64,000 nt of DNA, taken from Callorhinchus milii. Its lineage: Eukaryota. Shown here piece after piece: positions 17,547-63,251 of the stretch. How positions within the stretch are numbered: the first letter of the stretch is position 1; every line of letters begins with the position of its first letter. The stretch spans positions 123,940,001 through 124,004,000 of the forward strand of contig NW_024704742.1 in the NCBI RefSeq assembly GCF_018977255.1, given 5' to 3'. Both the position numbers and the translations under genes were made by a program. The notes below the pieces were generated by a model. That model was not told the origin of the DNA and searched no databases. It saw nothing but the letters and a program-made list of their open reading frames with translations.

Positions 17547-21505
<3,959 letters not shown>

Positions 21506-21551: not shown

Positions 21552-21580
21552 TATTTGTAAGATGGGCTGGAGGATGTGGT
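21552..21580 (-). promoter_or_regulatory. Gzm3 core promoter (duplicate of the Gzm2 promoter)
   Basis: TACAAATA at 21552-21559 and GGATGTGGT at 21572-21580. Confidence 0.55.
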
Positions 21581-22198: not shown

Positions 22199-22524
22199 TG
22201 GAGTCCTGTGGTTCAGTGGTTAGAGCACTCGCTTTGCAAGCGAGAGACCTGAGTTCAATTCCAGGCAGGGCAAAACCTTGGGTAAGTTTCCTTACTCCAC
22301 ACGCCTAATAATAATCCCTCCAAAAAACAAAAACAATAATAAATTGGTCATTTTCAATCTACGACTGTTTGTGGGACATTGCTGTGCGCAATTGGCTGCC
22401 GCGTTTGCCCACAAATATACAGTCAATTCACTTTACAGTGTGTTCTGTGAAGCGCTTTGGGACGTCCTCCTGACGTGAAAAGCGCTATATCAAATGCAAG
22501 GATTATTATTATTATTATTATTAT
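22199..22524 (+). mobile_element. Young tRNA-Ala SINE nested in an older SINE; present only in duplication copy 2
   Basis: The empty site ggctgcctttgtttcgccc is at ~16473-16491 in copy 1. The filled site is flanked by a short (t)ttgt repeat. Confidence 0.88.
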
Positions 22525-23588
22525 TTGTTTCGCCCACAAAATATGCAGTCAATTCAGTTCACCGTTTATTCTGTGAAGCGCTTTGAGATGTCTTGAAGAC
22601 GTGATAAGGCGTTCTATCCAGTGCAAGGATTATTATTGTTATTATCCTCAATTTTCTCTATTTCTGTGCTTGTCAATTTTGTCCCTCCACAAGAGGGCAG
22701 TGGAAAGAAACAAGAAAGAACATGTGTTGGATTTGCAGAGGGAGTCTGAATGTATGATGCTGGTATTTTCTATCCCCCCTGGTGCCTCTTCATTTTGGTC
22801 AACCCTTTAAGCATGACAAGTCGTGGGAGGCAGATGATAGTTGAAACATCTTTGTTCCCCTCAAACAGCCCTATGCCATTTCCTACTGCATGAAGCAGCT
22901 TAACCTTTGAGCAGTGTTCAACTCTATGAGCAGGGGCAAGTGCTCTTCTTTCACAGTGCTAGTCAAGATGGGCAGCCTTCACAGCAAATAGCAGGCAGAT
23001 GTGCCTTCACCCTGCCCAGTGGCAGTAATGCAGTGTACACGCAGAATATACGAAGGAGAAGGGTATAAGAGATGTGCAAGTATACTGGCCAACCATTCCC
23101 CAAATGAAATAATTGATCATTCACTTCACTGGTGTTTGTGGACATTGCAGTGCGCAAATTGGCCACCACATTGATTTAGACGCAAAAACACTTTTTGAGA
23201 ATTGTAATTGCATATTTATTACTCTGTAAAATAATATTGCAGTAACTTTAAACAAAGAAACTGTATAAAGCCATCACTGCACGTGACAGTACCTGTAATG
23301 TACTTTGAGATGTTTGGCATGATAAGGCACTATAAAAATAGAGCTTCTTTATAATGTTGGTGCTACTCCAGCATGACCCCTGCTGCCTTTCTAATAGGCA
23401 CTAAACCAGGTTAAAAATCTGTTTTGTGCATATGCAGGCTACTAACTTTGAATTACTCTACATTGCATAGCTCTGCTAAGCATGGTAAAGTTACACAATT
23501 TTAAGGAGCATTTAATCAAAAGCACATTAGCCTTCTCCTAGCTCACTTCTCCAACATAAAGCTTAGAATAAGCAGTACAGCTTTGTCA

Positions 23589-26500
23589 CTAGATCTCAGT
23601 ATTGCTGGATGCTTTGATTCTGCTGTTAATCCAGGAAAGGTACTTTTTGGAAAGTCGTGTGTAAACACCAGGTTTCTTAGGTTTTCCGCAACCATCTCCG
23701 AAAGAAACGATTCCTCTGAACACTCTCTTGCATATCAGTGGACCACCTGAATCTCCCTGAAAAAGAAATAATAAAAGTATATTTCAAGCATATATGGGAA
23801 ACCATAAACATTACACAGAGAAGTATTTACCATGTAGATATCTGCACTTTTTGGGCAATTCGTCTGTTATAAGCATTTTGAGACGTCTCAAAGATGTGAT
23901 AAGGCACTATATCAAATCCAAGGATAATTATTATTATTAATATAAGAAACAACTGATTTTCATTGGGAAGTTTATATAGCAATCTGCTGATGAAATTGTG
24001 CAACCTATAGGCAGAACCAAGGAATTTACAGCACAAATTAATGCCACTTGGCCCATCATAGCTCCATCAGCTTGATTTGGGATCAGGATAAGTCAGGCAA
24101 CTTCTAAGATAATGATTCTGTCACACAGTCATGAATTGTATTGTATATTGTATTCTCCCAGTGTCCTGGCCAACAATCCCCGTGATTAAAAATTGGTTGA
24201 ACATTTCATGGTTGTTTGTGGGACATTACCATGTGCAAATTGTCTGCTGCATTTGCCTCAAAATACACAGTCATTACACTTCATCACTATATTTAATGCA
24301 AGAATTATCATTATTATTATTATTACATATTTTTAAAACAAATAACAATATTCTTTAATGGGAGCCCCCAAAGTTTCTTGCATCCTGATCACAGCCAATA
24401 AGGTCATGTCAGGCTTGTCTAGACCCTTCCTCCCATCTATCTGAGTATTCTCCATCACAGGCTCTTTTGTGTCAAAATACAATTTTCAGATCTACAATGA
24501 TGAATATCAATCAGGTTGTAATAGCTATTACAATCAAGACCATTACAACCGATTGATATTCATTCTCAGATTTAGACTGTTGTACATTCTATGTAATATG
24601 TAATAAAAATAGAATTGTCAAACATATTTGATGTACACAGTATTAGACTGCACCGGTTTGACATGAGATGAGGTACAATTACAATACCTCCATGTAGAGG
24701 ATCACTACAACACTTTATTCACTTTACTGTTGCATCCTTCTGATCTTTGGTTTTAGTTGCTAACTCCGAATTTTCTTTTACAATTCTTTAGCCAAGGGAT
24801 AGGTTGAACTTAGCTAATTAGATTTTTAAAATATTAGATTTTATTTTTTTAAATTCTTTTTCTCTTTTGGATTGCTCCACGTCACACACATACTAACTAA
24901 GCAGATAACCTGAAGCCCTGCTACAGCTTAGAACAGACCCATCTCTCCCAGTGCCCAGTCTCCAAGGGAATGAGATTGGTTGATTGACTGTGTTTGAATC
25001 AGTATGAGCCTTGTCCTCTATCGCTTGACACAGCCTCTTTGGATCTTTAAACACTGCACCTCTGCACCATGGAAGTCATTTTACCAGTGTCTGAGTTCAG
25101 TTCTCTGTTTCAGAATGTTGTGCACCTGACAGACACTCACCTGACAGGCATCTTTTCCTCCTCGTTTATCACCAGCACATAGCATATCATCAGTTATTTG
25201 GGAATTATTTTTGTAATATTCTGAACACTTTTTCCTGTCTATGATAGTTATGTTCACTTCCTGCAGCATATCAGAGGGTTGAGAGTTTCCAGCTGCTGTA
25301 ATCCCCCAACCAGCAACATTACACTTGGTTCCAACTTTGACATCATCTCCAGATTTAGGTAACGGCAAGAAATTTACAAAACTATTAGGCTTTGCTTTAG
25401 ATTTAAGCTGCAATAAAAGATAACTTTTATTAAAAAGATATACTAAATAGTGAAAGATCATTTGTTTTTAAAACATTATTAACACACTATTAAAATACAT
25501 TTTTAAATTAAAGAACCCCTATGGTGGAGCGGGTCGCCCCAGCTCCACCATGCACAAGATCCAGTTGATTCAAAACTCCAACTCCCGCATAATCACCAGA
25601 GCACTAAACTCTGTCTCCCCATTACACCAGTTTTAGCCAGGCTCCACTGGCTCCCTGGGCCTGAACGGATCGATTTCAAGATCCTCACACCCGTTTTCAA
25701 ATCCCTTCATGCCCTGGGACCTCCCTACCTCTCCGACCTGCTTACACCCAACTCACTGCCTCTGCTCTGCTCGACTGGCTCCAGCTTTCTGCATGTCTCT
25801 CGTGCTCTCCGTTCCACCATTGGTGGCCACGCTTTTAGCCACTATACCCCAAAGCTCTGGAACACTCTTCCTCTATCCCTCCACCTTACCCCTTTATTCC
25901 CCATCTTCAGCTCATGCCTAAAGACCTTCCTCTTCGACCGTTTCTACAGTCACCACCCCCTCCCCTGGTTTGTGTCGTGCTCCACCATTGTCAAGTGCTC
26001 TGAGATGCTACCTTGAGTGAGGGGCAAGGTATACAAATGTAAGTTGTTTTATTATTGAAAAGAAAGTGCAAATTAATATAAGTACTTGTCGTTCGGAAAC
26101 ATTTTGTTGTTTGGAAGGATAGTATGGAATCAAAATTGAATCATTCATAATTCGAGACTTGCCCAAGGTTTCGCCTTGCTGGGAATCGAAGACAGGCATC
26201 TCGCTGGAGGTTCAAATTGCAGTATACCCAGGTATACTGCAATTTGGACCTCCTGTGTCTAATTATTTTAACCTGAGGAACTGATTTTTTTGATATTTGC
26301 CATAATTAGAAACACAGTCAATACCTTACCTTCAGAAGCATGATATCATTTTTTTGTTGTTTGTGGTTAAAAGATGGATATACGATCATATCTTTGATGA
26401 TGAATATTTGCTTTCCTTTTTCTTTTTTTGAAAGTGAGAGAGCTCCAAGGACCACTTGTTTTTTTCCCATGAGTTCCCTGGAGAGAAATGCCAACAAAAT

Positions 26501-43777: not shown

Positions 43778-44888
43778 AAAGCCCAGTATCACGTATCCTT
43801 TTTTTTAAGTTTTAGGTCCATTTCCTGCTCAGATGTCAGCCTCTGTCAGAATTCTGTAGGTTCAAGCCAGACTTTGGGATTTTGAATTCATATGGTCTAA
43901 GTTGACACTCCAATGGAGTGCTTGGAGGACACTGCACTACAGAACCTTCAATAATACAGCCCAACTCCAGGATTGGATTAAAGTGTCAGCCTAGACTATG
44001 GAAGTTCAAGACTATGAGTTCCAAATCCCAACATGGAGCTCAAATTCACAATCTTCTGACTCAGGGGTGAGAGTGCTACTAACTCAACTTGTCTAACACT
44101 TTGGAAGTACAGATGATCAGGCGTTTGAAGAAAGCATGTGAAAATTGGGATTAAAAATACGAAGAGGTGCGACAATCTGATAAAACAGTAAAGCACCAAT
44201 TCTTACAACTAAATGTTGACAAGATGGAAGCCATACTCCTTGGCTCCCATCAATGTCCTCTGTCTTGTGGCTATGACCTTCTCAATTTCCCCGGAATATC
44301 CCTCAGACTCACCGAACTGGTGGCAACCTAGGCATCAGGTTCGACCCACACCTGTCCTTCTTTCCTCACACCTAGTCCCTAAGCAGGAATGCCTTACTCC
44401 ACCTCCGCCACATTGCCCGCCACTGTCAAATGCTCTGGGACTCTACCCTGCGTGAAGAGTGCTATATAAATGCAGGTTGTTGTTGTTGTTATGCCTATGT
44501 TCCCAATGATATGGAATCTGAATAATTGATCCAAATGCACAAGAACAGTTATGCAGTTTGCTTTATTTTCTATTTCAAACAAAGGCTCAAAAGAGAATAA
44601 GTGGTGCCATGTGGTGCAGTGGGATTCAATAAACACCTTGCTCTGAGCGTCAGTGCAGACTTAATGGGACAAATGACTTTCACTCTTAAATTTCTATCAA
44701 TTATTACCAAATAATATAACTATGAAGAGTTATATTCTGAAAAAAAGCAGCCTCTTAAAGCAAGTTAGCAAGCAGACAGTACTGTGGATTTGAGTTCCAT
44801 TTAGTTCAACCCAAGAGCAGGCAATAATGATATCAAGCAAAGAAATACAGAAATACGTTGTTTCTGCATACAAAGAAACTGATCCCAG

Positions 44889-47800
44889 TCAGTTTTGCTT
44901 CATTGTTGTATTGTAATTTGTGCCTTTAATTGATTTCTTAATCCACGTGACATGTTTACTGGATAGAAGCATATAGATGCCAGGCTTTTTGTCAACAGCA
45001 CAACCCTTTCCAAAAGAGGCAACTCCAGAGAAGACAGGTTTACCGAAACGTTTTGTTTTACACAGTAAAGCATCACCAGCATCGCCCTGCAACAAAACAA
45101 ATACAAATTATCACTCAACTTATATAAACATTAATATAACAATTCACACCATAATAAGTATACCACACTCCACTCCTTCAAACTCCAAAAATGTAAGGAA
45201 AGAGTTTACACCTCAAGCTTGTTTCTGTTTTACAATTATTATTATTATTATTTTCTAAGTTATTTTCTGTCTCCCCTTTTGGTTTCATATTTTGTACTAG
45301 TCTGTGATGGGAGGATAGGCTAATGGCCTATACATGTAATCTTGGTCAATAGTGAGTGCCCTTGAAGGTGATACAAGATATTTGTACAAACAGAGTGGCC
45401 TGAATTCCTTCACTTACTGAGGACAAATTCCTGTTATTCTTTGAATCACTGTGTAAATTATGCATGTTAGTTATACACAACGACAATTATTGTATACAAG
45501 GAATGGATAACTTACCACACATACACTGTTTTTACCCGTTTTGTCACCAGCACATATCATATCGTCAGTTATGACTGGATTCCGATTATAATAATTTTTA
45601 CTGTTGCAGGTGGTTCTGTCTATGATTCTTACAGTTGTTTCCTTCAAAGTGTCAGATGACTCATCATCATCTACACTGTCCTGACCCCATCCTTGAACAA
45701 TGCATTTTGTTTCAGGTTTGATATCTTTTGTTGATTTTGGCAGCGAAAGGATTGATACAAATTTATTCAGTTTAACAGGACGATCTAACTGTAACACACA
45801 AGAAAATCATAATAAAATGTAGACTATGCTTAAAAGTGATGTGTTTATGCCAGTTTTATTTCCCCAAGATTTTGCAATGCAATACATGTAAGTGAATCTA
45901 TATTGGCAGATGAGGTTTAATCCAGAGAAATGCAAAGTAACGCATTTTGGGAGGAAGAATGAGGAGAGACAATATAAGATGATGGTACAATCTTAAAGAG
46001 TGAGAAGGAAAAGAGAGACCTGGGATTTCATATAAGCAAATGTTTGAAGGTAGCAGGACAGGTATATAAAGCTGTTAAAAAGCATATGGGATACTAGGCT
46101 TTATAAATAGGGGCATCAAATACAAAAGTCAGTAAGTTATGATGAACCTTTATAAAACACTGGTTAGGCCTCAATGAGAATACTGTGTTCAGTTCTGGGC
46201 ACCACACTTTAGGAAGAAAGTCAAGGCATTGGAGAGGGTGCAAAGGGGATTTACCAGGATGGTACCAGGAATGAGGGACTTCAGTTATCAGGAGAGGCAA
46301 GAGAAGCTAGGATTATTCTCTTTGGCGAAGAGAAGGTTAAGAGGAGACTTAATAGAAATTTTCAAGATGATGAGGGGATTCGGTAGGGTGAACAAGGAGA
46401 AACTATTTCCACTGGCTGATGGGTTGGTAACCCGAAGACACTGATTTAAAATAGTTGTTAAAAGAAACAGAGGGGAGGTGAGGAGAATTTATTTCACACA
46501 ACGAGTTGTTTGGATCTGGAATGCGTTGCCTGAAAGGATGGTGGAAACCGATTTGATAACAACTTCTAAGAGAGAAGTAGATAATTATTTGGGGAGGACA
46601 AGTTTGCAGGGTATGGGGAGAGATCTTGGGAATAGGATTAATTTGGATAGCTCTTTTTAAAGAGCCGCTGCAATCACGATGGGCCGAATGGCCTCTTTCT
46701 GTGCTGTATAATTCTATGATTCTAACAATATTACTGAGCCACAATGTACACTGTTCTGCGGATAATTTCAAAATACCCAGTGAATTCACTTTGCAGTATA
46801 TTCTGTGAATCGTTTTGAGCAAGAACAACAACAAAATTACATTTGTAAAGCACCTTTCACGTTGGGACGACATTCCAAGGCACTGAACAGTCAGGGATCA
46901 GGACCCAAGTGTGGGGAACCCAGTTGTTAGTCGATTGGCAGATCACTTTTCCAGGGGTAATAATTCCTCAAAAAAAATTGGTTGCTCAATCTATAACTGT
47001 TTGTGGGACACTGCTGTGCAAAATTGGCTACCGGGTTTCACCTACGAAATATACAGTTAATCAATTTACAGTATATTCTGTGGAGGACCTTGAGACGTCT
47101 CGAAGATGTGATAAGGCCCTATATCAAATACAAGGATTATTTTTTTTAAATTATTATTGTAAAGCCTCCAAACCATATGATCTCAATGAATTTATCGATT
47201 CTGTGGATAATTGTACAGATGATATCATAATATATCATATTCCATACATTTGAGACAATAACACATTAACAAAGCCACAATTTTTACCTTAAGTAGCGCC
47301 AGGTTATTTTCCTCTGTCTTTTGATTATAGTTTTCACGTTTTTCCGCTATGGCTGTAAATTCCTGCCTTGTCTTGTTATTCTTCAAGGAAAGGGTTCCAA
47401 GGATCACACTTTTTTTCCCTTTGTGACGTTTGCTGAGGTGACTGTGTAAAGAAACTTTGTTACTTGGTGTATTTTTTAAAAAGGTTTTCAATTAGTTCAA
47501 TCATATCAATATCAACATTCACATGAAAATGAAATAACAGCAAACATTCTGTTTAATTTACTGCTTTCATTTTAGGGTGAAATTCCTACTGGTCTATTTG
47601 TGGATACAAGTATAGTATCTTTTTATACATTTTTACCCATTGTTCACACCCAGTACACACAGATCAGTACAGTAATAATAATCATAATAATAATAATAAT
47701 CATAATAATCCTTGCATTTGATATAGTGCTTTTCACGTCTTCTAGGCGTCTCAAAGTGCTTCACAGAATAGACTGTAAAGTGAAGTGACTGTATAATTGT

Positions 47801-48493
47801 GGCCGAAATGCAACAGCCAATTGTGCGCATCCTCTCTCACAAAAAGTTGTGGTATGAAGTGACCAATTTAATATTGTTTTATTTTCTTAAGGGATTATTA
47901 TCAGGCATATTATTATCAGTGGATTAATTGAAACTAAAATTGGCTTACACCACCCTTAACTTATTCTCAGACTGAGACTTTTCTGTTTGCTACACTAATT
48001 ATTATTAAATTTTGATTAAAGTTTCTTAATGAATGATAATTAATCGAAAATGTACAGCAGTTTGCTGGTACGATCTGGAAGTGGTTTGAGATGCCCTACA
48101 CTTTGCAAATTACAACCTTCAAAGCTAGATAATATCTCATATTAAAAGGTATATTGGTGCTCATTTTGTTTTATTAAGTAACTATTAGTATAAACAACAT
48201 GTTACAATACTTACACAATGCAGTTTGCTGTCGTCAGGATCCACTGGCGATGAATCAATGTTGCCCCACATTCATGTTTGTTTTGAAACTGAATGGATGC
48301 CATATAAGATCCTGTCTTCTTAACATCACGACCATCAATTATTTCCACACAAAAATCTACAGCACAAAATGAATACAATTGTTACAAATAATCGTTATTT
48401 ATGGGAATCTTAAACCAGGTTGTGAACATACTTACAGCCTTGACTGACTAAGGCGATAATGATTACTGAGACGAATAATATTACTTGATGCAT
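44889..48493 (-). CDS. Gzm6: catalytically inactive granzyme homologue (pseudoprotease), about 271-274 aa
   Basis: Exons 48436-48493, 48215-48356, 47288-47432 (alternative in-frame acceptor at 47441), 45516-45788 and 44889-45086. All are GT-AG with no stops. Signal MHQVILFVSVIIIALVSQG, FCVE|IIDG, TTANC (H57N), EENNLALL (D102N), NSVCVGDAGDA (S195A, Ser at 189). Eight canonical Cys are retained. Confidence 0.85.
45885..46722 (+). mobile_element. CR1 LINE 3' fragment in Gzm6 intron 3
   Basis: ERVQRGFTRMVPGMR..LGLFSLAKRRLRGDLIEIFK, FTQRVVWIWNALP and a 3' tail ctgtataattctatgattcta. Confidence 0.85.
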
Positions 48494-48541
48494 GCTGAGC
48501 TATTTGTCCAACTGCACAACTTTAGTCTAAGAGCAGTTCTA

Positions 48542-48566
48542 CTTTATAACAGCTGGAGGATGTGGT
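48542..48566 (-). promoter_or_regulatory. Gzm6 core promoter: TATA box plus GGATGTGGT element
   Basis: TATAAAG (minus strand) at 48542-48548 and GGATGTGGT at 48558-48566. Confidence 0.6.
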
Positions 48567-49445
48567 ATTCACAAGTCACGCAAGCTATGATCTTTGGCAG
48601 CTGTCGGCCCACTTCAGTTGGTAGCATTCTCACTTCTGATTCACAAGGCCATGGAACACAAGAGAGGTTTGGATGAAGGACTTCCTTTTGACTCCCATTT
48701 GATCTCATCCTTCCAGAATACCCACTCTAACATCCATTCGATACAGCAGCAAGTTATTTCTTAAATGTATCCCACTTCAATTATCCTTCCTGGAAACCCA
48801 TCCCTCTGAATAAATTATTCAGCCTCTGAATAAAGAAATACTTCCTGGTGTCTGTGCTGCTGTCCTGAAATTAAGTTTTGCAACCATGAAACTGTGCCCT
48901 GAAGCAGGAGCAGACTGGCTATATGGGTAATCGGGATGTTTACCGAGTGCCCCGTGAATGGCTTCCGATACTTACCACCCCAGAGCCTGACATCCGGGTG
49001 GGTGTCAGGTCAGACCAGCCCAGAGCCCGCTCTCCCTGATGACCGACATCTACGATGGCCAATCACTGCCGAGATCCCACCCTCCTGTTTAAGCCCCAAC
49101 CAAAGATTTTATATTCGCAAAGAATTTATGCTGAATTGAATTTGGGTAGTTCGGAACCGCAGGAAAGAAGGCATTGACGGGAGCCAATGAGTATGGCTTC
49201 CATCTTGCCGACGTTCAGTTGTCTGAAATTTTCGCTCATCCAGGTCTTGACGTCCATCAGACAAGTTGACAAGACATCAGTGGACTGGGAATTGCAGCTG
49301 GAGGAGGAGGAGGAGAAGTAGATTTGGGAGTCATCTGCATACATGTGGAACTTGACCCCATGCTGTGGATAACATCCCTGAGAGGGAGCATGTAAATGAG
49401 GGAAAGAAGGGGGTCAGGGACGGAGTTTTGCGGCACCCCATAGGT

Positions 49446-52125
49446 GACAACAACAACAACAAGATTCCATTTATAGAGCGCCTTTCACGTCGGGAGGACG
49501 TCCCAAGGCGCTGTACAGTTGGGTCAGGACCCGAGCAGGGGGGAAATGGTCAGGGTGAGGGGAGGGAAGGGAGGGAGCGAGGAGGGGGTAGAGAGTCGAG
49601 AGGGGAGCTGAAGGCACGGTCAAAGAGAAAGGTCTTGAGACCACCCTTGAAGGAGGAAAGGGAGGAGACAACGCGAAGGCACTGGGGGATAGAGTTCCAG
49701 AGCCTAGGGGCTGAGAGGCTGAAGGCCCGGCCACCGATGGTAGGGCGGTTGGGGCAGGGGATTTGGAGCAGACCGGAGCCAGAGGAATGGAGGGTACGGG
49801 CAGGTAAGTAGGGGGATAGTAGGTCAGAGAGGTAGGAGGGAGCGAGGCCGTGAATGGCCTTGTAGGTGAGGATGAGGATCTTGAATTCGATCCTCTGGGG
49901 GATGGGGAGCCAGTGGAGGCGAGCGAGGGTGGGAGTGATGTGGTCACGAAGCCTGGTGCGGGACAGTACACGAGCTGCAGAGTTCTGAATGACCTGCAGC
50001 TTGTGGAGGGAGGTGCCGGGAAGGCCGGCGAGGAGAGAGTTCCCATAGTCCAGCCTTGAGGTGATAAAGGCGTGGACCAGGGTTTCAGCAGCGTGAGGGG
50101 TGAGGTAGTGCCGTAGTCTGGCGATATTCCGGAGGTGATGGAAGGCGGTGCCAGTTGTGGCGCGGATATGAGGGAGAAAGGACAGCTCAGGGTCGAACAG
50201 AACACCGAGGTTCCTGACTGGCTTTGAGAGGTGGAGAGTGCAGCCTTGGATGCTGATGCTGTCAGCGCCTGAGGTGCGGAGGCGCTGACGCGAGCCAATC
50301 AGGAGGGCCTCAGTTTTACGCACGTTGAGCTGAAGAAAGTTGTCTCTTGTCCAGGACTCGATGTCGGACAGGCAGCTGTCAGGACATCGGTGGTCGTGGA
50401 GTTGAGGGTAGAGGAGGAAAGGTAGAGTTGGGTGTCATCCGCATACAAGTGGAAGTTAACCCCATGTCTGCGGATGATGTCACCGAGGGGAAGCATATAG
50501 AGGGTGAAGAGGAGGGGACCGAGCCCTGAGGGACACCGCATGAGACAGTGCGGGGGCTGGAAGAAAAACCATTCGTGGAAACAAAGTGAAGACGGTGGGA
50601 GAGGTACGACCTAAACCATTCAAGGACAGGGCCTTAAAGGTTGAGTTGGGAGGACAAGCGGTGGAGGAGGATAGCGTGGTCGACCGTATTGAATGCTGCC
50701 GATAGGTCGAGGAGGGCGAGGAGGCAGAGGGAGCCCTCGTCGCAGATGGTCAGGATGTCATTGGTGACCTTGACCAGGGCAGTTTCTTTGCTATGGGCAG
50801 CACGGAAACCCGACTGAAGGGGTTCGAATAATGAATGGGTGGAGAGGAAAGAGCGCAGCTGGGAGGCGACAACTCGTTCAAGGACCTTGGACAGGAAGGG
50901 GAGGTTGGAGATGGGCCGGTAGCTTGATAGCTGCGACGCATCAAGGGAGGGTTTTTTCAAGGTGGGAGTGATGGTGGCAGTTTTTAAGGGAATGGGAACA
51001 GAGCCAGAGGAGAGGGACAGGTTGACGATGTCTGTGATATGTGGGGCAAGGAGGTGGAGCTGGGAGATAAGGAGTGGAGTGGGGATGGGGTCAAGGGAGC
51101 AGGTGGTGGGTTTCAGGGATAGGATGAGTTTGGCGACAAAGGGTGGGGAAACGGGTACAAAAGTGTGTAGGGGAGGATGGGTAGGAGTCGGAGTGTGGAA
51201 GGACGGGGGTGGGGGGTGGGTGGATGTTGGAGGGGAAGTGACCGCGGAGTGGATTCCCTTGATTTTGGATTCAAGGAAATCCAGCATCTCCTCACAGTGA
51301 AGGTTGGAGGAGATGACCTGCGTGGGGTGGCGGGGGGGACGGAGGAGTCGGGATGTGGTAGAAAACAGTAACCTGGGGTTGTTCTTCGCCTCCAGGATTA
51401 TCCTGGAGTAGAAGGACAACTTGGCCGAGGCTAGAGTGGAGCGGTAGATTTTGAGGAGGTCCAGCCAGATTTGTCGGTGGACCGTTAGGCCAGATTTGAC
51501 GCAGGTGCGTTCAGCGGCCCGCACCTGGCTCTTCAGTGAGTGGAGGTGGGTGGTGAACCAGGGGGAGGAGCAAGAGTAGGAGACAGTACGGGAGGTGATG
51601 GGGGCAAGAATGTCGAGTGTGGAAGAGAGGGTGTTGTGGAGGAGGGTGAGAGAAGAAAAGTGGTCAGTGAGGGTTGAAGGCCAGAAGGAGAGGTGTTCAG
51701 AGGACTCCAAGGCAGCAGTTAGGGATTGTGGGGGTAACTTCTTCCAGGGGCGGTAGAAGATGGTGGTGGGTCTGGTGGAGGTGGGGAGGAGGGTGGAGGT
51801 GGTGAAGGAGATGAAGTGGTAGTCGGAGACGGCCTTGTCGGTGATAGTGACATCCGAGACGCTGAGGCCCCGGGTGATCACCAAGTCGAGTGGGTGGCCG
51901 TGACTGTGAGTGGGGGAGTTGATGTGGAGGGAGAGGTTGAGCGAGGAGAGCAGGGAAGAGAAGTCTGAGGAGATGGAGCAGGAGGGGGTGAAGTGTAGGT
52001 TGAAGTCGCCCAGGATGATGAGGCGATCAGAGCAGAGGCAGAGAGATGTAAGAAGTGTCGAAATATTAGAGATGAAGGTGGGAGAGGTTTTAGGGGGCCG
52101 GTAGAGGAGGAGGATTTTGAGTGAA
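49446..52125 (-). mobile_element. Relatively young 5'-truncated L2 LINE (endonuclease C-terminus, RT and 3' tail) nested in an older L2 (49140-49445 and ~52126-52500)
   Basis: ORFs 50634-51884 (YRPISNLPFLSKVLE, QSGFR, LLDLSAAFNTVDH), 50299-50541 (YADDTQLY) and 49550-50323 (LHWLPI, LWNSIP); few frameshifts; (TTG)n tail. Confidence 0.92.
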
Positions 52126-52861
52126 GGAGGAGGGGTGGGAGGAAAAACGGTTTGCCAAGATGTATTGTTGGCAGTTTGTCAAGTAGGACTCGAATCATGT
52201 GAATGCAGTCCCACTAAGGTGGATGAGGGTGGAGAGGTGGTGGAGGAGAGTTGCGCGATCAACTATGTCGATCGCGGCAGAAAGGTCGAGTAGAATGAGG
52301 AGGCAGAGGGAGCTCTAGTCACAGATAAAGAGGATGCTATCTGTTACTTTGACGAATGCTGTCTCTGTGCTGTGGGCAGTGCGAAAATTGGACTGGAGGG
52401 GTTCGAGTTGGGAGTTGATGGAGAGGTGTGAGAGAAGTTAATTTGCAACCATGCAGGAAGGGTAGGTTTGAAATGGGTCTTAAGGTTACCTGTTCAAGCT
52501 GCACATCCTCAACCACCACCCCACCCCACCCCCCACTCACCCACCCCCCTACCCCAACCACACACACACAACACACGTAAGGACATTGTAGTTATGCTTG
52601 ACACTCCAATGCAGGGCTGAGGGAGAACTCCATTGATGGAAGTGCGATTGTTCGAATGAAGCATTACACTGTGGTCCTGTCTCCCTGTTCAGATCAATCT
52701 TACAGATCTCATGACACTATTGAGTAAGAGAAAGGAATTTTTACCAGTGTCCTGGTCAACAATCCTTCAGACAGAATTGATTTCATTCATGTTTTTTTGG
52801 AGGGGACATTGCTGTGCACAAATTGGCTGCCACCTTTGCCCATAATTGCACAGGTAGTACA

Positions 52862-53802
52862 TCAACAACAAAATTACATTTGTGTCGTACCTTTCCCGTC
52901 AGGAGGACATCCCAAGGTGCTGGACAATCAGTGTTTTGGACCCAAGCTGGGGGTCGATATCGGGGAGGGTGGAGGGCAGTGTGGGAAGGAGGGTGATTGA
53001 AGTCACGGTAAAAGAAGAGGGTCCTGAGATGTGTCTTGAAGGAGGCAAACGAAAGGGCGAGGCAGAGGGACTGCCGGATGGAATTCCAGAGGATAGAGGC
53101 AGAGTGGCTGAAGACTCGCCCGCCAATGATGGGCCGGGCAAGGCGGGGGACATGAAGCAAGCCAGAGCATGCTGAGCGGAGGGAGTGGATAAGTTGGAAG
53201 AGGTTAGGAAGTTGCAGAGGTAGGGAGGAGCAAGGCCAAGGAGGGCTTTGAAGGTGATGACTAGGATCTTGAACGTTATTCTCTGTGTGATGGGAATGGG
53301 GGTGATAGGGTCACGGAGCCTGGTGTGGGAGAGTTCTGGATGATCTGCAGCCTATGGAAGGAAGAGATGGGGAGGCCGACAAGCAAGGAGTTTGCATAGT
53401 CGAGCCTCAATGTAATCAAAGCACGTATGAAGGTTTAGGCAGCCTGCGGTGTGAAACAGTAGTGGAGCCGGGCGATGTCGCGGAGGTGGGGAAGGCAGAG
53501 CAGATCATGGCACAGATGTGGGATAGAAAGGACAATTGAGGGTCAAACAAGACACCATGGTTACAGACTGACTCAATGAGATAGTGTGCATCCTTGGACG
53601 GTGATGCTGTCAATGCCTGAGGTGTGGCGTAGCTGATGGGAGCCAATCAGGAGAGCCTCAGTCTTGTTGACGTTCAACTGAAGAAAGTTAGCTCTCATTC
53701 AGGGTTTGATGTCTGATAGATATGAGGATGGAGGCAGAGAGATAGAGTTGGTGTTATCCGCATACATATAGAAGTTGACCCCATATCTGTGGATTATGTC
53801 AT
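52862..53802 (-). mobile_element. Degenerate L2 3' fragment inserted into a Deu-type SINE
   Basis: RPIIGGRVFSHSASILWNSI; the SINE body resumes at ~53805. Confidence 0.78.
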
Positions 53803-54499
53803 CTTTTACTACACTTTATATTAAATCCTGTGAAGTGCTTTGAGTCATTTCGACAATATGATAAGGCATTTTATCAAATATCTTAACCTAGTCAAGTTGA
53901 ATAGTTCATCTTTTGTCACTTATCATAACCAAAAAAGTAGAACAATACTTGTAATATCATAAGCATTGTCAATTTGGAAGTAAAGCTACATCCGCACTTC
54001 CATTCAGGAATATTGAATGCACATATTTTGTAATGACCGGCAAGTACCATGGTAGAATTAGGAAGAAATATACATTACTGGACAAAGCTATGGTACATTC
54101 CTACTTCGCTTCGGAAACATTCTTGAGAAGTGATAAGGTGGATGCTCAGATCACTAGAGATCATCCCAAGGAAAGCAACAAGGTTGATCCTTAGTGTTAG
54201 AGGAATGTGATATGAGCAGTGATTAGAAAAGTTAGGGCTCTTCAGTCTTGAGATAAGATGACTCAGAGGGGATCTCATAGAGGTGTACAACTGTAAACCC
54301 AGAACAATTCTTTAGGATGTATCAAGGAGTAGAACAGGATGATGTATGTTTAGAGTTGTAGAAGACAATTTCAGGACAGATACCAGAAAGCTTTTATTTA
54401 TTCAGTGGTAATTAATAATTGGAACAGGTAGCCAGGACAGATGGTGAAGTCCAAGACACTGGACTCATTTAAAGGGCAACCTGACGTGGTGTTCTGGAG

Positions 54500-55560
54500 C
54501 ACCTTTCTCCACTGTCTTTCCTCTGTCTTCCACCTCAGTGGGACCGCACTCGCCTGGTTCAAGTCCTACCTCACGAACCACCCAGCGGTACATCTGCACA
54601 AACGGCTGTTCCTCCCGTTCTCACCCGGTTACCTGCGGGTACTCCAAGGATCTATCCTTGGACCCCTCCTCTTTCTGACCTACATGCTCCCTCTTGGGGA
54701 TGTCATCCGCAGACATGGAGTCAATTTCCACACGTATGCGGACAACACCCAACTCTATTTTTCCACCTCACATTGCGACCGTCAGTCCCCTGATGTTCTG
54801 TCAGCCTGCCTGTCAGACATCAGGAGCTGGATGAGCGCGAATTTCCTTCAGCTGACAAAAATGGAAGCTCAGTGGTTAGAGCACTCTCTTTGCAAGCGAG
54901 AGACCTGAGTTCAATTCCAGGCAGGGCAAAATCTTGGGCAAGTTTCCTTACTCCACACGCCTAATAATAATCCCTCCAAAACAAAACAATAATAAATTGG
55001 TCATTTTCAATCTACGACTGTTTGTGGGATACTGCTGTGCGCAATTGGCTGCCGCGTTCACCCACAAATATACAGTCAATTCACTTTACAGTATATTCTG
55101 CGAAGCACTTTAGGACGTCTAGAAGACGTGAAAAGCGCTAAATCAAATGCAAGGATTATTATTTCTATTATTATTATCAACATCTAAAATCACATGGTTC
55201 TCACCTCCTCCACCTATCCGACCTCCTCCTAAGCATCAGGTTCAACCCCCAATTATCCTTCCACCCCCACATCCGATCCCTCACCAGCACCGCTTTCTTC
55301 CACCTCCAACGCATCACCAGTCTCCGCCAATACCTCACTCCAAAAGCCGCTGAAACACAGGTGCATGCTTTTGTCACCTTTCAGCTGGACTATTCAAATG
55401 CCCTCTTTGTCTCTCCTCCACTACCATTCACAAAATCCAGGTCATCCAAAACTCTGTCATCCGCATTTTTACCCACACCAAACTCCGCTCCCTAATTACC
55501 CGAATTCTTGCCAGACTGCACTTGCTGCCTGTCCCAGAGAGGATCCCCCCACTGCCTTCC
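54500..55560 (+). mobile_element. Degenerate L2 RT fragment interrupted by a young SINE (54863-55177)
   Basis: QGSILGPLLFLTYMLPLG and YADNTQLY. Confidence 0.78.
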
Positions 55561-55689
55561 TCTGCTCCAGCCTGGGAATCCTCCGCCGGGCTCATCGTGG
55601 TACTCAGCATTGGCTGTCCAGCAGAAGCTACACCCACAGCCCCATTCCCCACTACCACCACAAGCCACCACGGGCCCAGACCCGGGGGC

Positions 55690-58367
55690 TAACCTCTCCA
55701 TCCTTATTCGCATAACCCAACCGCTCCGACCGCCTCATCATCCTAGGCGACTTCAACCTCCAATTCACCCACTCTTGCTCCACCTCCTCAGACTTCTCCT
55801 CTCTCCTCTCCTTTCCTCTCTTAACCTTTCCCTCCATATGCACTCTTCTATCCATGTTCATGGCCACCCGCTTGACCTAGTGATCACCCAGGGCCTCAGC
55901 ACTTGGGATGTCACCATCGCAGACAAGGCTATCTCTGACCACCATTTCATCTCCCTCAACACCTTTATCCCTCTACCCACTGCCTCCAAACCTATCACCA
56001 TCTCCTACCGCCTGTGGAAAAATCTCCCCACAATCTCTCTCTGCTGCCCTGAGCACCCTCTCCACCACACTTGACGCCCTTGCCTCCCTTGCCTCCCGAA
56101 CTGCCTCTTGTTCCCGACCTTCATCCTGGTTCACCAGCTACCTCTGCTCGCTCAAGGGCCAGGTGCAGGCTGCCGAACACATTTGGTTCAAATCCGGCCT
56201 AATGTTCCACCAGCACATCTGGCTGGACCACATCAAAACCTACCACTCTGCTCTCACCTCGGCCATCGTCCTTCTATTCCAGGTTAATTCTGGAGGCGAA
56301 GAGCAACCCCAGGCTCCTGTTCTTCATCACCAACCGGCTTCTCCGCTCTCCCTGCCATGCCTCGCAGATTCTTTCCTCCAACTTTCACTGCGAGGAAATG
56401 CTGGTCTTCCTCAAGTCCAAAATAATAATAATAATAATAATCCTTGCATTTGATATAGCGCTTTTCACGTCGGGAGGACGTCCCAAAGCGCTTCACAGAA
56501 CACACTGTAAAGTGAATTGACTGTATATTTGTGGGTGAACGCAGCAGCCAATTGCGCACAGCAATGTCCCACAAACAGTCGTAGATTGAAAATGACCAAT
56601 TTATTATTGCTTTGGGTGTTGGAGGGATTATTATTAGGTGTGTGGAGTAAGGAAACTTGCCCAAGGTTTTGCCATGAAAAAAATGAGGGAATCCACTCAG
56701 CTGCCACTGACCCCCAACTTCCATCACCTTCCTAACCCCCCCACCACCACACTCCGACCACTATCCATCCCTCCTTCCACACCTTTGAACCTGTCACCCC
56801 CTCCTCTATCATCACCATCATATCCTTCATGAAGTCCACAACCTGCTCCCTGGACCCCATCCCCACCCCTCTCCTTAAATCCCAGCTTCACCTCCTTGCC
56901 CCACTACTCGCCGACATCATTAACCTCTCCCTGTCATCTGGCACTGTTCCTACCCCCCTAAAACAAAACAGCCACTATCACCCCCACCTTGAAGAACCTT
57001 CCCTTGACCCAACACAGCTATCCACCTACCGCATCTCCAACCTCCCTTTTCTGTCCAAGGTCCTTGAGAGAACCGCTGCCTCTCTGATGTGTGACCAGGG
57101 CTCCCTCTGCCTCCTCGTCCTCCTCGACCTCTCTGCTGCTTTTGACACTGTGGACCATTCAATCCTCCTCCACCACCTTTTCTCCCACCTCAACCTCCAA
57201 GGTTCTGTCCTTGACTGGTTCAGGTTCTACCTTTCACACTGCCTCCACTTCGTCTCAGCTAACGGCTTCTCCTCCAGCCCCCGCACTGTCTCTTGTGGTA
57301 TTCCTCAGGACTCTGTCCTCGGTCCCCTCCTCTTCACCCTCTACATGCTTTCCCTTGGTGATGTCATCCGCAGACATAGGGTAAATTTCTACGTGTATGC
57401 GGATAACACCCAACTCTATCTTTCTGCCTCCACCCTCAACTCCATGACTACTGACGTGCTGGCCGACTGCCTGTCCGACATCAAGTCCTGGACAAGGGAC
57501 AACTTTCTCCAGCTGAACGTCAGCAAGACTGAGGTCCTCCTGATTGGCTCATGCCAGCGCTTCTACACTTCGGGCGCTGCCAGCATCCGCATCCACGGCT
57601 GCACACTCAACCTCACTAAGCCAGTCAGGAACCTGGGTGTCTTGTTTGACCCTGAACTGTCCTTTCTCCCCCACATCCGCACCATGACCGGCACTGCCTT
57701 CCACGACCTCCGCAACATTGCCAGACTCCGCCACTGCCTCACCCCTCAGGCTGCCGAAACCCTTAACCACGCATTTGTCACATCAAGGCTCAATTATGGA
57801 AATTCCCTCCTCATCGGCCTTCCCAATGCTTCCCTTCACAAGCTGCGGATCATCCAAATCTCTGCAGCTTGCATACTCTCGCGCACCAGGCTATGTGACC
57901 CCATCACTCCCTCCCTCGCCCGACTCCACTGGCTCCCCATCCCTCAGAGGATCGAATTCAAGATCTTCGTCCTCACTTTCAAGGCCATCCATGGTCTTGC
58001 CCCCTTCTACCTCTCTGACCTGCTAACTCCCTACCAACCTGCCTGCTCCCTCCGTTCAGCGGGCTCCGGTCTGCTCCATGTCTCCCGCCCGACCCGTCCT
58101 ACCATTGGTGGCCGGGCTTTCAGCCTCTCTGCTCCCACACTCTGGAACTCCATCCCACGGTCCCTTCACCTCGCTTCCTCCCTTGCCTCCTTCAAGGCCG
58201 GTCTCAAGACCCTCCTCTTTGCCCTCCCACCTCCCTGTCTTCCCTCACCCTTACCCCACCCTTCCCCCATGCTCGGGTCCTGATCCTTGACTGTCCAGCG
58301 CCTTGGGATGTCTTCCCGCCAGAAAGGCGCTCTATAAATGTAATTTTGTTGTTGTTGTTGTTGTTGA
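55690..58367 (+). mobile_element. 5'-truncated L2 LINE with an internal deletion and an antisense SINE insertion (56421-56672)
   Basis: ORF 56829-58283 is the RT (LLDLSAAFDTVDH, YADNTQLY, LHWLPI) but lacks the QSGFR segment; (TTG)n tail. Confidence 0.9.
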
Positions 58368-59494
58368 GGATTTCACAAGCAAGTTTACAATCAATTAATG
58401 AAACAAAAGTGAGATTAATACCATGTTTCACAATTTATTTTCTTGTTAGCAAAATACTGATACATTTTTCTCTTGTTTTAGCCTCAAACATTTATGAACA
58501 GCAGTAACATAAGACGTGATGCTATCTAACCTGCATCAAGAGCTGTTTATGGACTATTGCTGTGGACAGATTATCTGCTACATTCACATACACAGTCATC
58601 ACAGTAAATCCCGTAAAGCCCTTTGAGATGTCCTACAAACGCGAAAAGCACTTTATGTAGAAGAATCTCTCTAAACATCTTGGATATACACAGGTTTTAT
58701 ATATAGTTAATAATAATAATCATAAAAAAAATCATTTTATTATTATCAATTCTGTATACAACCTATGCTCATTCAAGATAATAATAATAATCCTTGCATT
58801 TGATATAACGCTTTATCATGTCATCGAGACATTCAAAGTATTTCACAGGATATACTGTAAAGTGGATTGATTGTGTATTTTGTAGATGAAACGCAGCAGC
58901 CCAGTTGCGCATAACAATGTCCCACAAATAGCCATGGACTGAGTGACCAATTCTGTTTGGGGGATTGTTGCCCAGGATACTGGGAGAAACTCCCTTCTCT
59001 TTTCAAATAGTGCAAGTGGGATCTTTAACATCCACTTGAACAGGCAGATGGGATCTCAGTTTAACATCTCATCTGAAGGACAGCACCTCTGACAATGCAA
59101 CACACTTCCATCACTGCATTGGAGTGTCACCTTAGGTTATGTGATTCCAAGTCCCAATGCGACTCAAAGTCCACACAACCTTCTGACTCAGAGGTGAGAG
59201 TGCTGAGTGCACTGTGCCAAGGTGACACACAATTTATTGCTCTCATATTTAGGAAGACTGGTTTCACAATTCCTGAATAAAACAAGCCTTGCTGGTCTGT
59301 TGTTGGTCACTTGGTCTAGACTTACCATATTATCTTTGCTAGTTTTTCCGAATCAGTAGCAATAGAGTATTCAAGAGTCACACATGCTGAAAGTGTCAGA
59401 TTTCTTTCAAATCACTCAAACTACAAAAACCTATAAGCAAGCTATAGTTTAATCACCATAAGCCAACAAATACGGATCCTTCATGATTTTCTTG

Positions 59495-62400
59495 TTAAAT
59501 TTGTTTAACTGGCGCATGATAACTTTCAACTCCAATGAGTTTCTGAATCCAGGAGATGTATTTCTCTGTTAACAGGGTGCAGATTTCAGGCTTGTTGGCA
59601 TCTTTGGAATTCTTTCCATGTAAAGCAATACCACACAACATCTTCTTCTTATGCAAAACCTTTCCTATTTTGCACAGCAATGGACCACCTGGAGAAATCT
59701 GTGGTAAAAAATTAGACAACATGTTAGAACTGGAGTATTCAAGTAAAGATAAAGATATTGCAGTCATGAAATGAATAATCAATTCATGAGGGCATACCAT
59801 GTGAGACATATAATAAGTAATCTTGTGCTATGGTTTACTTTCAAATGATTGCACTCCATGTAATGTATTTCATCTGTTCCAGTGAATATACTGGAACTCT
59901 GCAGTTTAGTGGTTTAGCACTCGCTTCACAAGCAAGAGGACCTCGGTTTGATTCCCGAGCAGGGTGAAATGTAAGCAAGTTTCCTTACTCGACAAGCCTG
60001 TGTTTATCTAGCAGTAAGTAGGAACCGTTAGTTGGCAGATTGCTTTTCCGGGAGTAATAATCCCGTCAAAAAATATATAAAAGGAATATTAATCCACACC
60101 TCTGTGTGCAATTGGCCCAGAAAATATACAGTCAATTCATTTTGCAGTATATTGTGTGAAGCACTTTTAGATGTCTCGAAGACGTGAAAAGGCACTATAT
60201 CAAAAGCAAGGATTATTATTTTGCTTCATCCCATTATAAGTTCATACCATCGAGGCAGTAAAGTTACTGGCCTTGTAAAGGTATGGCGAAAGGCCACCGA
60301 TGGTGGGGCGATTAGGGCGGGGGATGTGGAGCAAACCGGAGCCAGTAGAACGGAGGGTACGGGCAGGTAGGTAGGAGGATAGTAGGTCGGAGAGGTAGGA
60401 GGGAGCAAGGCCGCGAATGGCCTTGTAGGTGAGGAGGTAAATGCAAGTGAGGTGTAAATGCAAGGATTATTATTATTATGTGCCAAGATCTAATAACTTG
60501 TGGAACAAGCTAAATGGCCTCATCTTGTCCTTGCTTTGCTCTGTTCTTATTGACAAATGGACAATTATACAGAGCTGCCATCAAAGTCTGTACATTTACC
60601 AACAATCTGAGAATCAACTCCTAGATCTATTATATAAATAAAGCACACATATATATATATATCCTATATCCTTGCATTTGATATAGCGCTTTTCACGTCG
60701 GGAGGACGTCCCAAAGCGCTTCACAGAACACACTGTAAAGTGAATTGACCGTATATATGTGGGCGAATGCGGCAGCCAATTGTGCACAGCAATGTCCCAC
60801 AAACAGTCGTAGATTGAAAATGACCAATTTATTATTTTTGGGGGATTTTGGAGGGATTATTATTAGGCGTGTAGAGTAAAGAAACTTGCCCAAGGTTTCG
60901 CCCTGCCTGGAATTGAACTTAGGTCTCTCGCTTGCAAAGCGAGTGCTCTAACCACTGAGCTACAGGACTCCACATGTTCTCATGCTAGCTAAATATCACA
61001 GTTTACAATATGAATGAGAGATATAAATTCCTTCAAATGACAGTGGCATTCCTCCCGACATGAAAGGCACTGTATAAACATAAATTATTATTGCTGTTGT
61101 TGTCAATGACTTACCATGCACATATTATTTTTACCCTTTTGTTCAGCTGCACAGATCATGTTGCTAGTTATAATTGGATGTTTGTGGTAAGATTTATTGC
61201 AGGTGGCATTATCAATCACAGTTACATCTGCTTCCATCAAAGTGTCAGACGATTTCTGAACATTTGTACTGGTTTTTCCCCATCCCAGAACACTGCACCT
61301 TGTTCCACGTTTGATGTCTTTTGGCAGTACTTGCAGATGGAAGATTTCTACAGATTTCCTTTTAATATTTGCATCTTGAGCTAACTGTAACAGATAAAAA
61401 TAATCATCTATTGCACTTCAGTCTATAGCTCTTAAATACATACTCCTTAAACATGTAAAGCTCCGAATTCCCACAAAACTCACAGTCAATCCACTTTACA
61501 GTATATCCTTTCTTAGATAAAGAGACCAAAACTGCACAGAATATTCTAGGTGCGGACTCACCAAGGCCCTATGCAATTGCAGCAAGACTTCCCAGCTCTT
61601 GCACTCTAACCCCTTTGCAATAAATGCTCACATTTATTAGCCTTTCTACTTGTTTGCTGAACCTGCATACTAACTTTTTGTGATTGGTGTACAAGGATAC
61701 CTAAATCTCTCTGAATATTAACACTAACTAGTCTCTCCCCCTCTATCTTATATACTCTCATATTCCATTATCATCCTTTTAATCAGTTTTTTAGTTATCC
61801 TTTGCTGATCTCTAAAGCCCTCCCAATCCTCAGGTTTACAGCTCTTTTTTGGCAATAGGCCTCTTCTTTTAATTTTATACTTTCCTTAACTTCTCTAGTT
61901 ACCCATGGTTGAACCACTTTTCCCGTTGAATTTTTATTTCTCAAGGGAATATGCGTTCGCTGGGAATTATATAATATATCTTTGAACATTTGCCATTGCT
62001 TGTCTACCATCATATCTTTTAATCTACCTTCCCAATCTATTTTGTCAAATCATCCCTCATACCTGCAAAGTTGGCTTTATTTAAGTTTAAGACCCTTGTT
62101 TCAGACTTAACTACATCACTCTCAAACTTAATATTAAATTCCATCATATTCTGGTCACTCTGGCCTAGAGGAGCCTTAACTTCAAGATTACTGATTAGCC
62201 CTGCTTCGTTACACAATACAAGATCTAGGATAGCCTGTTCCCTGGTTGGTTCCTCAGCATATTGTTCTGGAAAACTATCTCTAATCATTCCATAAACTCA
62301 TCCTCTAATTTACTTTTGTCAATTTGGTTTTCCCAGTCTATATGAAGATTAAAATCACCCACTATTAGTGTATACCTCTTGCTACATGCTTCTCTAATTT

Positions 62401-63251
62401 CCTGATTAATACTCTGCCCAATACAGTAACTGCTGTTTGGGGGTCTATAAACTGCTCCCACTAGTGTTTTCTACCCCTTGTTGTTTCTTAGCTCCACCAT
62501 TACTGATTCTACATCCTGATTTTTTGACTTAAGGTCCTTCCTCTCTACTGTTTTTATCTCATCCTTTATTAGCTCCCAACCTTGGTCTCCCTGTAACCAC
62601 TCAGTAATGGCTACTAGATTGTACCCATTTATCTCTATTTGTGCCATTAATTTGTCTATCTTGTTACAAATGCTGTGTGCATTCAGTTATAGCGCCTTTA
62701 ATTTTCACTAAAAATACTTTTTACTAATTCCCCTACACATTAATACCCTATTTTCTTTGTTAAACTCTTTGTCCCTACTTGACACACTCTTTTCTTCATC
62801 TCCCAAGTCACTACTCTGCTCTACAGCCTTGACTTTTCTCATCTAATTCTGTTTCTGATGAATGCAGAAATATAAATGTGAACGTATTTTGCCCACAAAA
62901 TACACAGTCACTCTACTTTACTTCATATATTCCATGAAACCCTTTGAGACATCTTAACAACATAATAAAGGGATATATCAAATGCAAGGATTATTATTAT
63001 TAATATCAGATAACCCTCTCTTCAAGTGTAACAGCTTGCCAGCCCCCAGAAAACTCCTTGCTGAAAATAATGGCTGGATAATTTATTACACAAAATTTAC
63101 CTGGAGAAGCATGATGTCATTTTCTAGGGATAAATCCTTGAATTCAGGGAATGGTATTACGTTTTCCACCCGAATTTTCTGTTCTGTCTTACCCTTCTTC
63201 TTTGTTGATTGATCTCCAAGGACCACTGTAGGATTCTTTTTCTTAAACAAC
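59495..63251 (-). CDS. Gzm7: exons 3-5 of a second probably inactive granzyme homologue; exons 1-2 lie beyond the window end
   Basis: Exons 63101-63251 (VVLGDQS...ENDIMLLQ), 61115-61384 (LAQDAN...CSVLGWG...MICAAEQKGKNNMCM) and 59495-59698 (ISPGGPLLC...ISWIQK...stop). All are open with canonical splice sites. GDSGGP has become ISPGGP. Confidence 0.8.
60668..60973 (-). mobile_element. Young tRNA-Ala SINE in Gzm7 intron 4
   Basis: Same family. Confidence 0.87.
61510..62870 (-). mobile_element. Internally deleted CR1 LINE fragment (endonuclease region plus a piece of the RT C-terminus) in Gzm7 intron 3
   Basis: EQYAEEPTREQAILDLVLCNE, LGQSDQNMMEF, LNLNKANF and WQMFKDIL..HIP. Confidence 0.8.

Follow-up and report, generated by a model that had tools for sequence, protein, structure and literature searches.

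Gene B, a granzyme-type gene of the chimaera Callorhinchus milii, encodes what is in all likelihood a selected, non-catalytic protein. It lies on the minus strand at 44889..48493 of the window, the 64,000-nucleotide stretch of contig NW_024704742.1 analyzed here. We regard its product as a non-peptidase homologue because the catalytic triad of His57, Asp102, and Ser195 reads Asn, Asn, and Ala. Gene A, directly upstream of it, is also dead. Both belong to a granzyme A/K cluster, surveyed across the window plus 50 kb of flanking DNA, that holds eight granzyme-type genes in tandem, all on the minus strand and six of them with an intact triad.

Gene B is intact, and its transcript is spliced

Joining the five exons of gene B gave 825 nt encoding 274 amino acids and a stop codon. 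All introns were GT..AG, in phases 1-2-0-0. The features of the gene, with the evidence for each, are as follows.

48558..48566, plus strand: GGATGTGGT element, having the sequence of an ETS/RUNX composite; putative binding site (sequence match)
48543..48548, minus strand: TATA box, TATAAA (sequence, and contig start at 48514)
48436..48493, minus strand: exon 1, coding part, signal peptide (exon joining and RNA-like contigs)
48215..48356, minus strand: exon 2, with VE dipeptide, IIDG, and Asn57 at 48225-48223 (exon joining and contigs)
47288..47441, minus strand: exon 3, with Asn102 at 47305-47303 and Ala104 (exon joining, contigs, alignment)
45516..45788, minus strand: exon 4, with the acidic autolysis loop DSVDDDESS and Ser189 (exon joining, contigs, alignment)
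44889..45086, minus strand: exon 5, coding part, with Asp194, Ala195 at 45080-45078, and the stop codon (exon joining and contigs)
44562..44888, minus strand: 3' untranslated region, with a candidate AATAAA at 44567-44562 (contigs reach 44610; the poly(A) site is a prediction)

An earlier sequence-only reading of this DNA had claimed that the whole triad was replaced, and the three codons read as it said: AAC at 48225-48223, AAC at 47305-47303, and GCT at 45080-45078. In an alignment with human pro-granzyme K and granzyme A they fall at His57, Asp102, and Ser195, the positions that its numbering (H57N, D102N, S195A) gives. The five open, in-phase exons with canonical splice sites that it described were recovered in the reconstructed gene, and alignment located the VE dipeptide, the IIDG start, Ser189, Asp194, and eight cysteines in the mature domain. 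The proposed signal peptide is a probable one, to go by visual inspection and the helix at the N terminus of the structure model. The product of exon 4 is identical to C. milii protein entries. In the 5' untranslated region (48515-48493), ATAG stands at the position of gene A's ATG, leaving the start at the second Met; the N terminus of shark gene B orthologues is often M-S-K-M.

We compared 4 of 14 listed sequencing runs over positions 44500-48800. No run was recorded as RNA, and we infer the RNA nature of runs X1, X3, and X4 from their intron-free contigs. In each of these three runs, which come from two studies, a single contig (1019-1125 nt) spanned every one of the four introns, with joints where the gene structure predicted them; in X1 one junction was displaced by 5 nt next to an allelic difference. 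Run X9 covered the introns and contained none of the splice joints, as expected of DNA. The longest contig began at 48514, approximately 30 nt past the TATA box. The triad codons showed no alternative letter in any of the four runs. Assembly error and RNA editing were considered as sources of the dead triad and rejected, the runs and contigs carrying the genomic codons.

The TATA box and GGATGTGGT element that had been noticed near gene B were both found, at 48548-48543 and 48558-48566. In six of the eight promoters of the locus, those of both dead genes among them, a TATA-like box lies downstream of a ACCACATCC element. The six GGATGTGGT copies at granzyme promoters, each just upstream of the TATA-like box, are at 1323, 16015, 21572, 41011, 48558, and 64999 (L009, extended coordinates), and a seventh copy, at 51351, falls within repeat DNA. 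The same sequence forms the ETS/RUNX composite of the T-cell receptor alpha and beta enhancers (PMC2787013; papers are cited here by PMC identifier).

The dead pair is old and, in the data examined, specific to cartilaginous fishes

From three protein searches plus cluster look-ups, the first 167 proteins yielded 202 domains; for one search, the best 120 of 503 hits were used. Partial, duplicate, and most teleost rows were removed, leaving a 77-row tree. In this tree gene B belongs to a dead clade of 17 rows (clade B; support 100/99), and gene A belongs to a second dead clade of 13 rows (clade A; support 100/100). Both clades persisted when a tree of 34 rows was built without the triad columns. 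Clade B contains one holocephalan, 12 sharks, and four batoids. Gene A was found in 13 of these 17 species; failure to retrieve it from the remaining four does not prove that they lack it. A search of representative sequences returned mostly multi-domain proteases and one new A-type protein, Hypanus P0204, which was assigned by motif only. An atlas search returned granzyme/trypsin clusters only, and among the sequences examined no bony vertebrate fell in clade A or B.

The suggestion that orthologues would share the dead site without frameshifts was borne out, with His57 and Asp102 missing in all 17 cartilaginous-fish species recovered and Ser195 missing in 15. The chimaera-elasmobranch split is dated to approximately 420 million years ago (PMC6238376), and the species distribution indicates that the dead pair predates it. 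In the data examined, the sequences place the pair in cartilaginous fishes alone.

Two B orthologues, from Cetorhinus (P0021 domain 2) and Scyliorhinus canicula (P0140 domain 2), have Ser195 and still lack His57 and Asp102; in their nearest relatives position 195 is Leu or Ala. Two other losses lie outside the pair. Heterodontus francisci P0035, a separate granzyme, carries H57S but retains Asp102 and Ser195 and groups within a clade that is otherwise intact; it represents an independent, younger loss. The teleost granzyme A-like protein Mugil cephalus P0133 (H57R and S195L) is unrelated to clades A and B.

Losses cluster in the catalytic center

Within clade B, position 57 is Asn in 16 of 17 proteins and Asp in one, position 102 is Asn in all 17, and position 195 is Ala in 11, Val in three, Ser in two, and Leu in one. 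Ile16, Gly19, Gly193, Asp194, Gly196, Gly226, and the eight cysteines are invariant (17/17). The substrate pocket is remodeled: position 189 is Lys in 15 proteins, Arg in one, and Ser in one (chimaera gene B); Arg or Lys occupies position 192 in 14/17; position 216 is Glu in eight, Gly in six, Ala in two, and Gln in one; and Ser214 is missing from 16/17. The autolysis (140s) loop has a net charge of -1 to -6 in all 17, against -1 to +3 in intact chondrichthyan domains (n = 22). The sequence-only reading had also listed Ser189, IIDG, and GDAGDA; these are present in gene B but are peculiar to the chimaera, the clade having Lys189 (15/17), IIGG, and GD-x-GGP.

Clade A shows a different pattern. 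His57 and Ser195 are missing from 13/13 and Asp102 is kept in 13/13, and the pocket retains Asp189 in 12/13, Gly216 in 11/13, Gly226 in 12/13, and Ser214 in 10/13. The two pockets are opposite in character, A combining Asp189 with a neutral-to-basic loop and B combining Lys189/Arg192 with an acidic one.

Of 52 columns in which 90% or more of intact granzymes agree, clade B retains 44 (10 lineages scored). Six of the eight lost columns belong to the catalytic center, the triad and its second shell (Ala55, His57, Asp102, Met104, Ser195, and Ser214). Because the losses cluster there and new invariant residues have arisen in the same place, we regard the loss as targeted, a pattern that random decay does not produce.

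Gene B is conserved like its active neighbors

When coding sequence was allowed to drift neutrally in simulation to 56% protein identity, only 24 of 20,000 copies were without a stop codon (frameshifts were not counted), and 114 of 20,000 kept all eight cysteines. The open frame and the cysteine retention of gene B exceed chance. Orthologue identity is 0.65-0.69 for B and 0.66-0.76 for intact genes in the same species pairs, and between chimaera and elasmobranchs it is 0.53-0.57 for B and 0.55-0.58 for intact genes. The chimaera B branch (0.45) is comparable to those of intact chimaera paralogues (0.45 and 0.50).

The ratio of nonsynonymous to synonymous divergence (dN/dS) between gene B and five intact paralogues was 0.24-0.43; it was calculated for paralogue pairs only, at a dS of 0.9-1.95, which is near saturation, and gene g20 was excluded. 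A low dN/dS had been proposed as a check on orthologues; here it was obtained for the paralogues. A young pseudogene was rejected on the grounds of the simulation, the paralogue dN/dS, the clade support, and the shared dead site. Spliced transcripts, frameshift-free orthologues sharing that site, and the paralogue dN/dS together bear out the description of gene B as a conserved pseudo-granzyme.

Gene B is a granzyme A/K by descent

The gene B product matches the Pfam Trypsin domain PF00089 over full length (1-220/220) with an E value of 1e-50. An AlphaFold2 model built from 90 sequences had a predicted local distance difference test score of 87 and replaced an earlier model from eight sequences that had scored 63. 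The best match in a fold search was pro-granzyme K (TM score 0.79/0.90, root mean square deviation 1.5), and granzymes K and A (1mza and 1op8) were also the top matches in a PDB sequence search (E value 1e-51). The predicted structure, which the sequence-only reading had suggested obtaining, is thus compatible with a chymotrypsin fold, a statement about compatibility and not about function. The activation-switch residues Ile16 and Asp194 are present in gene B, as throughout clade B, and would form the usual salt bridge.

Descent from the A/K group is indicated by the tandem cluster of eight genes, by a tree position among chondrichthyan A/K-type genes, and by the top PDB hits. Five exons in phases 1-2-0-0 are the granzyme pattern, and in these, as in its signal peptide and dipeptide, gene B matches its cluster neighbors. 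It further resembles granzymes K and A in sequence and fold, in lying among six intact paralogues, in its Cys191-Cys220 type cysteine set, and in the shared promoter element. It differs from them in lacking His57, Asp102, and Ser195, in having Lys (here Ser) for Asp189, in the replacement of Ala55, Met104, and Ser214, and in the acidic autolysis loop. The Asp189-Gly216-Gly226 pocket of a tryptase is absent, with Ser189 here, Lys or Arg in 16/17 of the clade, and no triad. Nor do its relationships make it an azurocidin orthologue, which would belong to the met-ase locus and the elastase/PR3 branch: gene B sits in the A/K cluster among A/K relatives in a tree whose rows did not include azurocidin. 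We conclude that gene B is a granzyme A/K by descent and neither an enzymatic granzyme nor azurocidin.

What the protein may do

S1 proteases that lack His57 and Ser195 are inactive, and the dipeptides of granzymes are removed by cathepsin C. We propose, as a reading that may just as well prove wrong as right, that gene B encodes an activation-dependent, protein-binding cofactor or regulator. It would be made in cytotoxic cells of the natural killer (NK)/T type, given an ETS/RUNX plus TATA promoter of the type found in its active neighbors; a nurse shark NK cluster expresses granzyme-K-like loci, which are not further specified (PMC10529500). The product would enter the secretory route and be stored in granules; cathepsin C would remove its dipeptide, as it does for granzymes (PMC7914634), and an Ile16-Asp194 salt bridge would then give the mature conformation. 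It would bind and not cut, a remodeled cleft (Asn57/Asn102, Lys189, Arg/Lys192, and the acidic 140s loop) engaging a specific partner. The likeliest partner would belong to the granule effector system and be an active granzyme, a substrate or inhibitor of one, or the gene A product. Because Ile16 and Asp194 are invariant despite lost catalysis, the mature conformation itself appears to be needed, as in the hepatocyte growth factor (HGF) beta chain. HGF-beta binds Met through its substrate-binding region only after cleavage (PMC2475716), and two dead insect serine protease homologues (SPHs) combine into a cofactor that takes part in prophenoloxidase activation (PMC10540698). HGF beta and the insect clip-domain SPHs offer a parallel: their S1 domains are dead, have to be activated by proteolysis, and act by binding (PMC2475716, PMC10540698), the SPHs acting moreover as pairs (PMC10540698); they are multi-domain proteins of other lineages, and the likeness is one of mechanism only and not of orthology. 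In charge, Lys189/Arg192 of B recalls the basic pocket of granzyme B (Arg226; PMC7914634).

Several observations weigh against this proposal. Lys189 together with Glu216 (8/17) may plug the pocket, giving a closed surface with no binding cleft. Chimaera gene B has lost residues typical of the clade (K189S, R192V, G197D, P198A, and G18D), with 23 departures from the clade consensus in all, two of them at gap columns, which hints at looser constraint on this copy. Its four coding variants (T96K, D120N, D155E, and I191V) are all nonsynonymous; this is uninformative, though not reassuring, because the probability under neutrality is approximately 0.31. Pairs of intact genes have a dN/dS of 0.19-0.33, slightly below the values for pairs with B. 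Unlike its shark orthologues, chimaera gene A lacks IIGG and Asp194, so that not every member of the pair retains the activation switch; the branch of chimaera gene A is also long (0.65-0.77).

The main rival is an azurocidin-like effector. Such a granule protein, cationic and heparin-binding, would kill microbes, bind lipopolysaccharide, or attract leukocytes, the fold serving as stable carrier of a basic surface. We consider it possible but appreciably less probable than a binding cofactor. Azurocidin retains Asp102, whereas gene B has lost all three triad residues. Gene B would resemble azurocidin (CAP37) as a cationic, single-domain, catalytically inactive S1 homologue of granule type, and the mature B domains have net charges of +11 to +21 and isoelectric points of 9.2-9.7. 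Azurocidin, an inactive protease of granules, is antibacterial (PMC4646688) and a chemoattractant (PMC2199011), and as A/K is the sole granule-protease locus reported from cartilaginous fishes (PMC13337447), such a role would have to come from A/K. However, the net charge of B does not exceed that of its intact neighbors (-2 to +26), B has gained an acidic loop, and the invariant Asn57, Asn102, and Lys189 suggest that a specific surface matters more than overall charge. Azurocidin also differs in belonging to the met-ase locus, in being confined to placental mammals, and in its place on the neutrophil elastase branch (PMC4646688); its origin was independent of, and much younger than, that of gene B.

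It is unlikely that the product is a decoy or trap, a dead domain that binds the serpins or substrates of active tryptase-type granzymes noncovalently, in Michaelis-type complexes, and so protects or dampens them. The mature conformation appears to be selected in both genes, and gene A has the intact tryptase-type pocket, with its Asp102 and Ser214, that such a role would use. Gene B, by contrast, has Lys189, Glu, Gln, or Ala at 216 in 11/17, and no Ser214 in 16/17. Because of these changes it cannot read the Arg or Lys P1 residue of tryptase substrates and could at most bind acidic sites. To judge from the pocket residues, a serpin decoy or substrate trap would suit gene A better and fits poorly for B.

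Less probable still is that the clade functions in sharks and rays while chimaera gene B has begun to decay or has come under relaxed selection. The lost clade residues and the four nonsynonymous variants would fit, as would three further amino acid differences among the database entries P0004, P0015, and P0016 and the very long branch and lost N terminus of gene A. Against this, the B branch is no longer than those of intact chimaera paralogues; the frame, splice sites, promoter, eight cysteines, Ile16, and Asp194 are intact; and splicing is complete in two studies.

We give very little credence to A and B being halves of one polyserase-like tandem protein, an idea suggested by TMPRSS9- and PRSS53-like RefSeq names and by models of approximately 550 amino acids in nine species among the recovered proteins (P0001, P0002, P0003, P0013, P0020, P0021, P0140, P0144, and P0155). 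The junction sequences vary between species and no GT donor ends A in the window, and we therefore read the fused models as annotation artifacts; intact neighbors are also fused in models (P0153, P0156, and P0157). B is preceded by a promoter of its own, carries a separate signal peptide, and occurs in stand-alone entries, and the 1019-1125 nt contigs hold B alone, though no reads were compared over the intergenic DNA. That gene B is an active protease with a noncanonical site, for example the chymase proposed in 2015 on the strength of its chymase-like S1 triplet SGG (PMC4646688), can be practically dismissed despite Ser195 in 2/17 orthologues, there being no His57 in 17/17, a position 195 that varies among Ala, Val, Leu, and Ser, no conserved alternative nucleophile, and no editing, since the contigs show the genomic codons.

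Gene A and the rest of the locus

In gene A, whose dead state the sequence-only reading had missed, the catalytic motifs read TAASC, NDIMLL, and ISPGGP. Its exons, all on the minus strand, are as follows.

64941-64648, minus strand: exons 1-2, with Ser57 (extended coordinates, L009; just past the window end)
63101..63251, minus strand: exon 3, Asp102 retained
61115..61384, minus strand: exon 4, with Asn189
59495..59698, minus strand: exon 5, with ISPGGP replacing GDSGGP, and the stop codon

The tree neither supported nor rejected a single origin of A and B (approximately unbiased test, p-AU 0.42). A and B share Asn57, Ala195, GWGQ, a loop Asp, and a VITD motif; their synonymous distance is the lowest of 21 paralogue pairs (pS 0.536); and their promoter/exon-1 identity is 69%, compared with 46-52%. 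The shared residues, synonymous distance, and promoter likeness favor a single origin.

Exon 1 of gene A has a second, degenerate copy, interrupted by stop codons, within the second intron of the gene, at approximately 64286 (L009, extended coordinates). Between genes A and B, at 49400-58400, lie broken pieces resembling a long interspersed nuclear element, in inverted arrangement and 66-80% alike, with endonuclease- and reverse-transcriptase-like frames and of L2/CR1 type by eye. The intact neighbor downstream of gene B (40957-35744) has an unusual S1 entrance at the expected Ser214 site. Farther along, 13951-25538 holds recent segmental duplications of 3035 bp at 96.8% identity and 2282 bp at 98.2%. 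The granzyme gene at 21.5-17.5 kb is a hybrid, with exons 1-3 like those of the 16-12 kb gene and exons 4-5 like those of the 27.5-23.6 kb gene.

Earlier descriptions and what the pair means

Akula et al. (2015) reported five elephant shark A/K genes, two with the triplets NGE and SGG, of which the SGG gene "may also be a chymase" (PMC4646688). The S1 triplets of genes B and A are S/G/G and N/G/E, and these two genes appear, from the triplet match, to be the ones in that report. Its accessible text treats both as enzymes and mentions neither a missing triad nor elasmobranch orthologues. The remark in the sequence-only reading that no triple-dead A/K member had been described needs qualifying in this light: we found none described as inactive, but the gene was already in print as a possible chymase (PMC4646688). 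We found no account of inactive shark granzymes in the open literature; subscription papers and MEROPS/UniProt caution flags were outside the search, and an earlier mention is possible. No such remark occurs in the accessible portions of PMC13337447, PMC7914634, PMC6795676, PMC3964593, PMC10529500, PMC9207270, and PMC10707392. The word "granzyme" is absent from one supplement file each of PMC3964593 and PMC10529500 and from the main text of the shark proteome papers PMC9207270 and PMC10707392. Dead immune proteases such as azurocidin are known, and gene B is therefore of a known kind; it very probably has a non-cutting role, one that seems not to have been described before.

Two of the eight genes of the cluster are not enzymes, yet they are conserved like the enzymes. 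Annotations call A and B "granzyme K-like," "TMPRSS9-like," or "serine protease 53-like," and because of these names, counts of shark granzyme-K-like transcripts may include dead proteins. How cartilaginous fishes kill target cells without granzyme B is an open question (PMC4646688). A bolder reading, less likely than not, is that A and B form a co-working pseudo-granzyme pair, activated as granzymes are and acting in NK/T killing as a cofactor, receptor ligand, or acid-site adaptor for at least 420 million years, which would make them a non-proteolytic arm in a lineage that lacks granzyme B. The two genes should be tractable, being by prediction single-domain and secreted, with orthologues in the laboratory species catshark, bamboo shark, and little skate. 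They amount to a natural experiment on the non-proteolytic roles of the granzyme fold, one far older than azurocidin.

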